A stretch of DNA of 12,026 nucleotides from a virus, in the IMG/VR virus record IMGVR_UViG_3300031565_005162. One strand, written 5' to 3'. The position numbers and the translations under genes are program-made. Position 1 is the first letter of the stretch. Every line of letters begins with the position of its first letter. Positions 4,221 to 6,172 of the stretch are shown piece after piece. The notes beneath the pieces were generated by a model that was not told where the DNA came from, did no database searches, and worked only from the letters and a program-made list of their open reading frames with translations.

Positions 4221-4499
4221 TAGTTCTCTTGCTGCAACGCTCAAAGACTGAGATAGCCTTGCAAGTCCCATCGCTCTTGCATCGATGTTAGATTTTTAGG
4301 ATGTAACCTAACGGAAAACCCCCATTTACCCATAGGTGGAACTGCTTGACCCTGCAGTGGGTGCATTTTAAATAAGGCTGAGCGACGGGGGATTTTAACC
4401 CCGCACCTACTTTTCGTATGCATCTTACTAAGTAGGGCCGGCTATTTCGTTATGCCGGCGTTAGCCCGTGTAAATTTGAATTCGAGAAACACGAAAGAG

Positions 4500-4725
4500 T
4501 GTTTTCTGGAGATCTCGGAAGATCTCGTTGCTACGGCCGCCATAAATCGTACTTTTTCGGGCCCCAACCGAAGTTGAGTTTAACCATCCCATATGAACGA
4601 CATCGAGCTGGTAAGTTTATCTCAGAGAGAGTGTATGGAAGGGCTATTAACCACATCCGCGTATACCAATCGTGGAGAACCTCGCGGTTCCCGGTACTAC
4701 CTTAGGACCATTATATTCGAAGTAT
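4500..4725 (-). ncRNA. LSU rRNA domain IV/V-like fragment (miniaturised peptidyl-transferase-region-like)
   Basis: Minus-sense TATAATGGTCCTAAGGTAG (plus-strand 4697-4709) matches the 23S approx 1900-1914 region TATAACGGTCCTAAGGTAG 18/19. About 90 nt further 3' is a colinear series against E. coli 23S 2498-2600: CTCGATGTCG (plus-strand 4598-4607) - TCAT..TGGG - AAAGT.TACG..TTTA - CGT.G..A.GAGA..TTC.G. In real 23S these two regions lie about 600 nt apart; here about 95 nt. Confidence 0.4.
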
Positions 4726-4771
4726 CTCTTAGCTTACTACGAATTCAATATTTTAAAGAACGTTTTATTAG

Positions 4772-4824
4772 TGTCCAAGGCAGGATTCGAACCCATAGTA
4801 GCCAGTCTTCTTCTACTCTCGGAC
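4772..4824 (-). ncRNA. tRNA-like minihelix (acceptor stem + T-arm, no D or anticodon arms)
   Basis: Minus-sense GTCCGAG-AGTAG(aagaagactgg)CTACT-ATGGG-TTCGAAT-CCTGC-CTTGGAC-A. It has a 7-bp acceptor helix with one G-U and a canonical T-loop TTCGAAT, but the T-stem is weak (two G-U pairs and a mismatch). Confidence 0.3.
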
Positions 4825-5099
4825 AGTAGCCGGCGAGATTCTGCAGGATCTGCCGGTTTCCCTTACGGTTTTCAAGACCTAAAGACTAAGTTCAGCCTAG
4901 GCCATTTAATGTAGAAAAATGGCTCAAACTCTGTAGACAATATAGGATTCTACGGAACTGTTGGCCTATATAGGAGCCAACCCAACCTCTGATTGTTATG
5001 GAAAATCAGTAATACCTTAGTTTGATGTGGTGCATACTAAAAAAGACCTCCGGCAGGTCCGGTAACCCCATGAACCGCATGGACGGTGAATTCTTTTTG

Positions 5100-5145
5100 C
5101 ATCATTTGGGGGTTCGAACCCCATTAACCCTAATTGTTAATGATA
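5100..5145 (-). ncRNA. second tRNA-like minihelix (acceptor stem + T-arm)
   Basis: Minus-sense TATCATT-aacaattagggttaa-TGGGG-TTCGAAC-CCCCA-AATGATG. It has a 7-bp acceptor-like helix with a terminal U-G and a perfect 5-bp T-stem with a TTCGAAC loop. The T-arm core GGGGTTCGAACCCC is palindromic, so strand assignment is by context only. Confidence 0.3.
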
Positions 5146-5178
5146 TAAAAGGCTGAGACTATACCTCTTGCGCTAGTA

Positions 5179-5390
5179 CCTTTGTCGGCCGTATCCTTGG
5201 GTTGCGACACCCTTGGTTAACCACTTATCCACTTCCACTAAGGAAGTCTACCAGCAACGCTGCCTTGTTTTAGATGTAGGCTGTACCATCATCACCAGCG
5301 AGATACTCGATGTTCGTCTCTTCCCCGACCTTTAGAGCCGTTAGCCTCCGCTAAGAGGTTAGGCGTTGAGTTCCATCAAACTCCTCCACC
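5179..5390 (-). ncRNA. SSU rRNA-like fragments (16S approx 1040-1140-like and 5'-end-like)
   Basis: Minus-sense GGTTAACC..CGCAACCC..CGGCCG..AAAGG (plus-strand 5179-5222) is colinear with 16S GGTTAAGTCCCGCAACGAGCGCAACCC..CGGCCGGGAACTCAAAGG. Minus-sense GGAGGAGTTTGATGGAACTCAACGC (plus-strand 5364-5388) resembles the 16S 5' end AGAGTTTGATCCTGGCTCAGGATGAACGC. The order, with the 5'-end-like motif upstream of the 1100-like motif, is colinear, but the spacing is about 5-fold too short. Confidence 0.3.
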
Positions 5391-6172
5391 TTGCGAGCTT
5401 TGGAGTCCTTCATTCCCCGAAGGGTGAAGGTTTAAGCGATTTTCTCTCACTGACTGGCCAAGGCTTTGCGTTTTCCATTTATTTAATATAGATGCGGTTT
5501 TGACACCGCGACCCATTGCTCCAAAAGGCAATTGCTCTACGACTGAGCTAATCTAAAAATTGGTTCCTCGGAGTCGGCGCTTGGCCAAAGCTACATACCC
5601 TTTTGAGGTACATAATACTCAACCGACTCTGCGTTTCGGGTTTTGGTGGTCCCTACTGTGCCATGTTTTGCGATACCGGGAATTAACCCTTAACCACGAA
5701 CATTGAAAATTAGCCTTCACTCTCCAAAGAGCTCTGACAGATTCTCTACATCTTAACCTTCGCTGCTCGTAATGTTTGACACGTTTTTAGCCGAGTGTCA
5801 CCCCTATTTAGTGGGCCTCTGTTACCAGAGGTGCTTCCCCACCTTATCCTTGCCAAAGGACTAAAAACTCATTACTTACCAACTATCTCCAGTACGAGTG
5901 AAGAGGGGTCCAGGCAACCCCTAGTTGATGCTTGCGTAAGTTGACCATTGCTGGCGGGCAGGCTGAGGACCTACCCCTTTTGACCCTTGCGGATCATTAT
6001 CTCTTCACGTTGAGTATGGGCGAACCAACTCTCATTGTGATGGCGCTTCACGCATCGCCAATTTTTTCAAAATATTCAAAGAACGTAATAATCTTTTGTT
6101 TTGATAATAGTGCAAATGTAATATAAAGTTTCTTAATTAAAAAATCTTTTTCGTTAAAAAAACGTTAAGGAT

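Follow-up and report, generated by a model that had tools for sequence, protein, structure and literature searches.

The leaders of ribosomal-protein operons (L1, L10, L20, S8, S15 and others) contain copies of ribosomal RNA (rRNA) sites that capture the ligand. These mimics are small and cis-regulatory, present one protein-binding site and lie upstream of the gene for that protein. Mimics of transfer RNA (tRNA) are embedded in transfer-messenger RNA (tmRNA), viral tRNA-like structures, the Y-RNA YrlA and mascRNA, and two-piece tmRNAs are circularly permuted. Scrambled rRNA pieces exist in organelles and function in ribosomes. The 23S rRNA of Thermococcus barophilus is circularly permuted, complete and functional (bioRxiv 10.64898/2026.03.23.713588). 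GOLLD RNAs are longer than 800 nucleotides (nt), combine a 5' region of lower conservation with a 3' region that is conserved universally, and are encoded by phages and prophages near tRNA islands, the linker sometimes containing tRNAs (PMC12286853). GOLLD assembles into a 14-mer cage and is reported to pull down ribosomes (PMC12286853). Here we describe a viral locus in which a GOLLD gene is followed by another RNA, unit C. The locus lies in a 12,026-nt stretch of DNA, the window, from IMG/VR virus record IMGVR_UViG_3300031565_005162. The first domain of unit C, C1, is very likely related to domain IV of 23S rRNA by circular permutation.

The window carries a GC-rich block at 4183-6086, which is wider than the 4230-5930 proposed in the original prediction, a reading of the letters made ahead of this analysis. 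As that prediction had noted, GC content rises, to 44-49% over 4051-6000 from 30-36% in the flanks, and the block lacks a credible open reading frame (ORF): none exceeds 80 amino acids (aa), and the longest have 60-80 aa. All features of the block, together with the eight tRNA genes, all substantial ORFs and every other described RNA feature of the window, are on the minus strand. On that strand the block ends in a stem-loop at 4221-4186 followed by seven T's, seen by direct reading; the terminator scan missed it because of the 12-nt loop. The non-coding character, the minus-strand reading and the closing terminator, all three claimed at the outset, were thus borne out. Overall, the block is probably a run of minus-strand phage non-coding RNA genes in the tRNA island of a large uncultivated phage, including unit C with a 23S domain IV-like C1 that may act by mimicry. 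The coordinates of the individual features are given in Table 1.

Judged from its sequence, unit C (4764-4186, ~590 nt) is a composite phage RNA from an undescribed family, with C1 followed by C2 and then C3. The region 4769-4186 matched non-coding DNA upstream of a gene similar to that for major vault protein (MVP) in four to five IMG/VR contigs. A gapped pattern taken from the conserved core retrieved 21 metagenome loci, 21/21 of which were true homologs by nhmmer; it replaced a shorter, 16-nt pattern that had yielded mostly chance matches in coding DNA across IMG/VR. The family hidden Markov model (HMM) finds 22 distinct uncultivated-phage contigs at 105-189 bits, with a mean column identity of 57%, and the window itself scores 163.8 bits at 4748-4476. 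A pattern scan of 185,579 bacterial and archaeal genomes gave 0 copies of the family, and it has neither a member in GenBank phages nor a counterpart in Rfam 15. BLAST of GenBank phages with the window, with units B and C, and with the unit C of one relative likewise returned nothing. In one locus (L063), C1 occurs alone and is followed by a terminator, which indicates that C1 is an autonomous module.

The structure of C1 was tested on the family alignment as 32 pairs in six helices. The cells of the alignment are paired in 94.5% of cases, compared with 37-48% when the partners are slid, and 13 pairs have changes on both sides, compared with 2-4 in the slid controls. Both the covariation score and the percentage paired were reached by 0/500 shuffles. 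Frequent U.G and G.U pairs also fix the strand of the RNA. RNAalifold alone mispaired GGCGG with the strand equivalent to helix 67 (H67) of 23S rRNA and GG with the wrong CC; the structure was corrected by compensatory changes and by analogy to 23S rRNA. The positions of the first candidate, a simple P1 hairpin, are invariant. The H67-like pairing is compensatory, with GGUA/UACC in the window and GGCA/UGCC in relatives. At the base of the H68-like arm, 5/5 pairs vary yet stay paired, four of them with changes on both sides, and the arm itself ranges from 15 to 110 nt across the family. The H69-like stem YGGUC/GGCCR also covaries, including U.G to C.A switches.

The resemblance to 23S rRNA was first seen in a 13-mer, GGTCCTAAGGTAG at 4709-4697, which the original prediction had assigned to 23S rRNA and which is indeed identical to Escherichia coli 23S 1921-1933. 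Within the window alone, such matches are not significant, since there is no Rfam rRNA match and exact words shared with rRNA are at the level of shuffles (9 observed at k>=10 vs 7.4+-2.7; 3 at k>=11 vs 1.8+-1.3). The significance of the 13-mer becomes visible only at the level of the family. The identity at segment Z, a 13-mer in the window, is a 19-22-mer in 10 relatives, and many members extend it to AACTATAACGGTCCTAAGGTAG, which matches 23S 1912-1933 at 22/22 positions. Segment W aligns as CACGAATGGCAAA to CACGAATGGCGTA at 23S 1965-1977, and segment X of locus L067 reads GTAATGCCTGCCCAGTGC against GTGACGCCTGCCCGGTGC at 23S 1826-1843. At segment Y, relatives carry GTAAACGGCGGCC or CGGCGGCCGTAAC, identical to 23S 1897-1914. 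In the family, block Y lies ~150-250 nt downstream of block Z, and the two together make up the whole of H69 with its flanks, in swapped order. The complete phage order is Z (1912-33), the H71-like hairpin, W (1965-75), the H72-like hairpin, X (1826-43), a short H68 and Y (1897-1914). This arrangement appears to be the 23S order rotated, with a break in the H69 loop and with H72 joined directly to H67.

Rotation of the phage sequences decided how far the similarity extends. Without rotation, the family HMM gave no more than a 21-nt match in the rrn operon (9.2 bits, E 1.4e-4), which was read first as a short motif; the domain-level match emerged only after permutation. With Y joined to Z, the HMM matched 23S 1892-1933 at 28.9 bits (E 8e-10), and the permuted C1 of the window scored a z of 11.8 against shuffles in comparison with 23S rRNA. 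A covariance model was then built from 12 rotated phage sequences only, with six helices annotated over 143 positions. Against the E. coli rrn operon, this model matched 23S 1826-2006 across 143/143 positions with 41.7 bits (E 6e-10), while its next best match there reached 4.5 bits. In 617 kb of other phage DNA it found nothing beyond the window's own C1. RNAfold of the E. coli 1826-2006 segment gave the H68, H69, H71 and H72 pairings that we had assumed. The nucleotides that are invariant across the family include the universally conserved joining nucleotides of rRNA, AUAA, CCUAAGGUAG, CACGA and GGCGG. By alignment and covariation, C1 carries counterparts of H67, the base of H68, H69, a mini-H70, H71 and H72, and is colinear with 23S 1826-2006 after permutation. 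C1 is thus, as far as sequence can tell, derived from the core of 23S domain IV or at least a close mimic of it.

Some further sequence features of C1 and its relatives were noted. TGGCGGCCGTAGC (4542-4530), which overlaps segment Y, is also identical to nucleotides 5-17 of E. coli 5S rRNA, an identity that looks coincidental because GGCGGCCGTA is present in both rRNAs. A 15-mer of locus L059, GAGATAGCTGGTTCT, at about position 415 of unit C in the C2 region, equals E. coli 23S 799-813 and does not recur in the family. In locus L036, C1 contains the invariant CGTRGTAAG..TAAGGG..TACTTCG hairpin twice (second copy at L036:7168-7260). The H68-like arm holds a 60-110-nt insertion with CCAGGAGG...AATCCG in nine loci (L024, L036, L057, L059, L061, L068, L069, L073 and L075).

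Several points weigh against a domain IV origin and a role in mimicry. C1 has little similarity to 23S rRNA beyond ~70 conserved nucleotides. Most of H68 is missing, the H70 loop has shrunk from 10 to ~5 nt, GNRA stands in place of the H71 loop, and the tip of H69, in ribosomes the chief site of functional contact, is opened. For the subtype represented by locus L062, the H67 counterpart is only tentative. The permutation was chosen after the matches had been seen, so the E-values are somewhat optimistic. Thermodynamic support is weak, with a minimum free energy (MFE) z of -1.4, though the real 23S segment scores a z of only -0.27; this measure is uninformative for C1. The target of mimicry is a guess, the domain IV junction being a site with few protein ligands. 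The transcript ends, promoters and processing sites are those that we infer from the sequence. Lastly, a joint function of GOLLD and unit C is not required, because each occurs without the other.

C1 may have originated from a duplicated fragment of ribosomal DNA trimmed at both ends. A tandem duplication of ~1826-2006, with both ends trimmed, would produce exactly this permutation, and would also make loop nucleotides (AAC) possible at both ends of C1. In ribosomes, H68, H69 and H71 form bridges to 16S h44, h45, h23 and h24, and are also contact sites for RRF, HflX and release factors. C1 keeps the junction that positions these three helices. It may act by molecular mimicry of this core of the 50S interface, competing with 23S rRNA for the ligand of the H67-H71 junction. 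Candidates for that ligand are the 30S platform/h44-h45 region and a factor or toxin able to recognize H67-H71. One proposal for phage tRNA genes is that they keep translation going, or shield it, during infection, and mimicry by C1 might modulate or protect translation at this stage, possibly together with GOLLD. We put mimicry forward tentatively, as a possible mechanism that falls short of being probable. A more elaborate version is a long shot: unit C would be a working 50S-interface mimic that binds the host 30S (h44/h45/h24), or a factor or toxin targeting that site, via the H67-H71 junction with AUAA/CCUAAGGUAG, deployed from the tRNA islands of large phages alongside the GOLLD nanocage and the vault-like protein to capture, protect or reprogram ribosomes. 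A working mimic of this kind would make unit C the first known case of a viral RNA that copies an entire rRNA domain, and functional mimicry would give phages a new route to disturb or defend translation at the level of rRNA rather than of tRNA or protein factors. Since GOLLD is reported to pull down ribosomes, unit C also touches the open question of what giant RNAs of the GOLLD and ROOL type do.

A serious rival to mimicry, although on balance unlikely, is that C1 reuses the domain IV junction only as a folding scaffold, or converged on it. Unit C would then be an 'ornate' phage RNA, perhaps self-assembling, with no ribosome target. The opened tip of H69, replaced by other helices, would fit such a role, as would the altered loops of the bridge-making H68 and H71, the presence of the further, unrelated modules C2 and C3, and a genomic niche that is the same as for GOLLD and ROOL. 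However, what the family holds invariant is not only helices but the very nucleotides that are universally conserved in rRNA, whereas nothing would keep the sequence of a pure scaffold from drifting. Convergence on a near-identical 42-nt stretch is unlikely as well. Were C1 only a reused fold, it would still be a natural case of an rRNA domain that was excised, permuted and redeployed, with a bearing on the modularity and evolution of large RNAs. The family alignment and model make the mimicry and scaffold readings directly testable.

The relation of unit C to the neighboring GOLLD RNA is the next point at which another reading arises. The region 6086-5150 is a standard GOLLD RNA, an additional member of the known family in its usual setting. 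The match to the conserved core spans model positions 1-416 of 416. The 5' domain (456 nt) is homologous to the 5' flanks of the core in six other contigs; by nhmmer, the stretches immediately 5' of the Rfam core in L075, L059, L071, L062 and L018 score 158-228 bits. Homology to other GOLLD loci begins sharply at 6086, giving a total length of ~937 nt. The tRNA-like insert in the linker, at 5557-5486, is not called by ARAGORN and has, by direct reading, an 8-nt anticodon loop and an atypical T-loop. The gene lies in a phage tRNA island with 8 tRNAs in the window and with PHROG matches. Homology predicts that this RNA forms the RNA-only nanocage known from GOLLD.

Unit C could conceivably be the 3' accessory extension of one ~1.9-kb GOLLD transcript and not a separate gene. 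GOLLD is directly upstream of unit C in 6 distinct loci and on the same strand, and in L062 the gap between them is only ~60 nt and holds no terminator. Yet unit C occurs without GOLLD in at least seven loci (L021, L024, L028, L036, L056, L057 and L065), all of which extend >=3 kb further upstream, and L018 has GOLLD without unit C. The ACGTTCTTT motif precedes both units, which are separated in the window by unit B and a hairpin resembling a terminator. A single transcript is therefore improbable.

The original prediction had offered an rRNA-derived mimic or decoy, a fragmented rRNA set, and the remnant of a captured rrn operon as readings of the block. The first of these is supported for one ~275-nt domain only (4749-4475), which resembles H67-H72 of 23S domain IV after circular permutation. 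That the block is not canonical rRNA was upheld, with no match to small-subunit (SSU), large-subunit (LSU) or 5S models of Rfam at E<=10 in 4000-6200 on both strands. Of the RNA families suggested for the block, the Rfam models recovered GOLLD, and rRNA, ROOL and introns gave none at E<=10. An unrelated non-coding RNA family thus accounts for part of the block, GOLLD taking up ~940 of ~1900 nt, and leaves the remainder unexplained. In 5040-4183, which GOLLD does not cover, no rRNA, ROOL, intron, tmRNA or other Rfam family was found by gathering score or at E<=10.

The specific motifs behind the rRNA reading fared poorly. A colinear series matching domain V (23S 2498-2600) has no counterpart in the family, where only 23S 1826-2006 matches, and helices 89-93 cannot be drawn. 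Its leading piece, CTCGATGTCG (4607-4598), equals 23S 2499-2508 in the window, yet it is not kept in relatives, which have CCAATGCTG or CCCGGTGTCG at this site. Alignment indicates that the identity to domain V is a coincidence confined to the window and that the true counterpart is 23S ~1832-1845. The 16S-like series GGTTAA..CGCAACCC..CGGCCG..AAAGG (~5225-5180) and the motif likened to the 5' end of 16S rRNA, GAGTTTGAT (~5380), both lie inside the GOLLD match, outside the GOLLD consensus, and are at chance level.

It is very improbable that C1 is the decaying remnant of a captured rrn fragment, or a target site for a homing endonuclease or intron at the level of DNA. Several members contain 22 nt identical to a classic homing site, AACTATAACGGTCCTAAGGTAG, which we take to be the I-CeuI-type site in 23S rRNA, and phages are rich in homing endonucleases. 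Decay is nevertheless excluded by conservation with covariation: across 22 diverged phage contigs with a mean identity of ~57%, the rRNA-like part persists, its pairs change by compensation and its closing helix is retained. A homing site would not account for X, Y and W, three other 23S-like segments that are colinear and lie as much as 200 nt away, nor for the compensated pairs, and its 3' half (GCGAAATTCC) is absent. Group I and group II introns gave no covariance-model match (E<=10), and the block holds no intron-encoded or endonuclease ORF (none >80 aa). That the block holds a working rRNA set, radically reduced or in fragments, is barely credible, since the scrambled order of pieces known from organellar rRNAs and one well-preserved, domain-sized piece are set against the lack of any Rfam SSU/LSU match at E<=10, of any other match of the family profile in the rrn operon (neither 16S nor domain V), and of a peptidyl-transferase center, decoding center or 5S, the 16S-like and domain V motifs being neither conserved nor above chance.

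Table 1. Positions of the RNA features in the block and the basis on which each was assigned
Feature	Position	Strand	Basis
C1, putative circularly permuted miniature of 23S domain IV (H67-H72)	4475-4749	-	family HMM, covariation, 23S match
C1 closing helix P0 (GAATTCG/CGAATTC)	4746-4740 with 4484-4478	-	covaries
Segment Z, AATATAATGGTCCTAAGGTAG, equal to 23S 1913-1933 (3' half of H69 loop, H69 3' strand, start of H70)	4697-4717	-	
GNRA-capped hairpin in H71 position	4675-4692	-	4/6 pairs with compensatory changes; aligned to H71
Segment W, CACGATTGGTA, resembles 23S 1965-1975 (junction and H67 3' strand)	4664-4674	-	alignment
H72-like hairpin, TCTC-loop-GAGA	4619-4631	-	near-invariant sequence, so no covariation
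Segment X, CTTACCAGCTCGATGTCG, resembles 23S 1829-1845 (H67 5' strand and H68 base); includes CTCGATGTCG	4598-4615	-	
Shortened, variable H68-like arm, GGATGGTTAA..GGGGCCCG	4544-4597	-	alignment to 23S GGAAGGTTAA..GGGG
Segment Y, ATGGCGGCCGTAGCAAC, resembles 23S 1900-1914 (H68 3' strand, H69 5' strand, 5' half of H69 loop)	4527-4543	-	
C2, cloverleaf-like four-way junction with T-loop-like hairpin GGGG-TTAAAAT-CCCC	4376-4471	-	covariation
C3, 3' module from TTTAAAATGCACC to terminator 4221-4186	4186-4372	-	motif comparison, direct reading
Upstream motif ACGTTCTTTGAATATTTTGA at 5' edge of GOLLD	6067-6086	-	unique in window, 0.04 expected
GOLLD 5' variable domain	5631-6086	-	homology to other loci, no ORF
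GOLLD conserved 3' core (Rfam RF02032)	5630-5150	-	163 bits vs gathering score 150, E 1.3e-44
Degenerate tRNA-like insert in GOLLD linker	5486-5557	-	Rfam tRNA 39.4 bits
Acceptor/T-arm-like minihelix GGGG-TTCGAAC-CCCC (GGGGTTCGAACCCCC) after GOLLD	5099-5133	-	direct reading
Terminator-like hairpin and T-run	5039-5060	-	terminator scan
Unit B, unclassified small RNA module	4773-5041	-	starts at TTTAGTATGCACC
Unit B 3' minihelix, acceptor/T-arm-like, GGGTTCGAATCC flanked by GTCCGAG..CTTGGAC	4824-4773	-	direct reading

The remaining parts of unit C are less closely tied to known RNAs. C2 has 20 pairs, 12 of them with compensatory changes, and its MFE fold is the same as the covariation structure (z -2.6). 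It gave no match to the tRNA covariance model of Rfam at E<=10, and relatives have 0-2 copies of it. C3 contains the conserved GGGTAAATGGGGGTTTTC motif (4336-4312). Its TTTAAAATGCACC motif, which recurs after terminators in relatives, does not reach significance in the window by itself. No homolog of C3 was found by single-sequence nhmmer; it is the least conserved and least certain part of unit C and may be a separate transcript.

Unit C and GOLLD share an upstream motif, ACGTTCTTT(R)AA.ATT, which precedes GOLLD (6086-6067) and unit C (4764-4747) in the window. The ACGTTCTTT motif is also found at the 5' edge of GOLLD and/or C1 in L018, L059, L062, L071 and L075, and the longer form occurs five times in the 14-kb locus L070. 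The motif departs from the sigma-70 consensus and could serve as a promoter specific to the phage, or as a 5' or processing signal. A scan for sigma-70 promoters gave background levels. Between the two genes, unit B is treated on sequence grounds as a small, mobile, unclassified RNA module. Weak homologs occur only in L071, where it is downstream of unit C, and in L018; unit B is absent between GOLLD and C1 in L062, L059, L075, L063 and L071, and its MFE z of -1.3 is uninformative. The minihelix at 5133-5099 is kept in L062, where it separates GOLLD from C1. Minihelices like this one and that at 4824-4773 precede C1 in L062, L063, L069, L071 and L075. No tRNA tool (Rfam tRNA/tmRNA models, ARAGORN) detects the minihelices or C2 within 4183-5150. 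The two minihelices of the window may be signals for 3' end formation of the RNase P/Z type.

The gene neighborhood is similar among relatives. In nearly all loci, one strand carries in order a SiaC-like gene, optional tRNAs or GOLLD, unit C and the MVP-like gene. Unit C is present in only 5/22 of the MVP-carrying viral loci that were fetched, and the shared order may be synteny among related phages; it is not used as functional evidence. The MVP-like gene of the window is an 819-aa ORF (976-3435, minus strand) with homology to the major vault protein of eukaryotes. Its Pfam matches are MVP_shoulder (E 7e-25) and a Vault_3 repeat, and residues 445-585 match MVP chains in the PDB at E 1e-13. 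Homologs with 40-80% identity occur in 22 IMG/VR contigs, some of 320-480 kb. In 11/14 loci with enough sequence, unit C is followed by the gene at a distance of 0.5-2.8 kb. Its proximity to GOLLD places a homolog of the vault shell next to a cage-forming RNA.

On the other side of the block, 8132-8512 (minus strand) encodes a homolog of the SiaC family (DUF1987) of regulatory phosphoproteins (Pfam E 1e-32); in 17 loci a homolog shares the strand of unit C and lies 0.6-4 kb upstream of it. A 335-aa protein at 8877-9884 (minus strand) belongs to phrog_24834 (E 1e-148). It shows a weak radical-SAM core like that of the rRNA/tRNA methyltransferases RlmN/Cfr, with an NCBIfam E of 1e-6 that is far below curated cut-offs and a Pfam Radical_SAM E of 0.004. 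The 586-aa protein at 6173-7933 (minus strand) has no family or PDB match; 17 IMG/VR contigs carry homologs with 28-68% identity, in every case within a dense array of tRNAs. The tRNA set of the window, at 3560-4149 and 9918-11947 on the minus strand, is skewed, with four tRNA-Leu (gag, caa, taa, tag), two tRNA-Glu(ttc), Tyr and Pro(ggg). Searches of the neighboring proteins in Pfam, PHROGs, NCBIfam and PDB gave no clue to RNA binding or to the ribosome.

Comparison with described systems separates the two large RNAs of this locus. The GOLLD gene agrees with GOLLD (RF02032) in score, in its variable 5' and conserved 3' regions, in its ~0.9-kb length, in the tRNA-like insert of the linker and in its phage tRNA island. 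It differs in nothing essential, the embedded tRNA being degenerate and a tRNA-like minihelix following the gene. Unit C shares with ROOL and other 'ornate' phage RNAs a comparable scale (~590 nt), multi-helix junctions, a phage-encoded and non-coding nature and a place beside tRNAs. Its sequence and architecture are unrelated to ROOL (RF03087; no match at E<=10), and it has an rRNA-homologous domain, of which we found no description for ROOL or GOLLD in the literature consulted on them. No viral RNA copying an rRNA domain is described in Rfam 15 or in the literature searched, which is not proof of novelty. Ribosomal-protein leaders are, like C1, non-ribosomal RNAs that copy an rRNA site; C1 differs as a six-helix junction in a free-standing phage RNA, taken from a region with few protein contacts. 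Its placement also differs from that of a leader, with no ribosomal protein among the six window ORFs scanned against NCBIfam or the eight scanned against Pfam. Downstream of unit C are a terminator, two tRNA-Leu genes, a 100-aa ORF without a family match and the MVP-like gene. The RNAs that embed tRNA mimics likewise carry a fold of the translation machinery within another RNA, and the window has minihelices and a cloverleaf-like C2. However, they copy tRNA, whereas C1 would copy rRNA, and neither the minihelices nor C2 pass a tRNA or tmRNA model. The closest parallel to C1 is the core of 23S domain IV itself (E. coli 1826-2006), of which C1 appears to keep the H67, H68-base, H69, H70, H71 and H72 pairings together with the conserved joining sequences. 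Yet C1 fails the Rfam LSU model, measures ~275 nt against the 2904 nt of the rRNA, begins and ends within the H69 loop and is joined to modules that are not of rRNA type. With genuine permuted rRNAs, C1 shares a native 23S order that is rearranged by circular permutation; those rRNAs are complete and work in ribosomes, whereas here a single miniaturized domain is carried by a virus.

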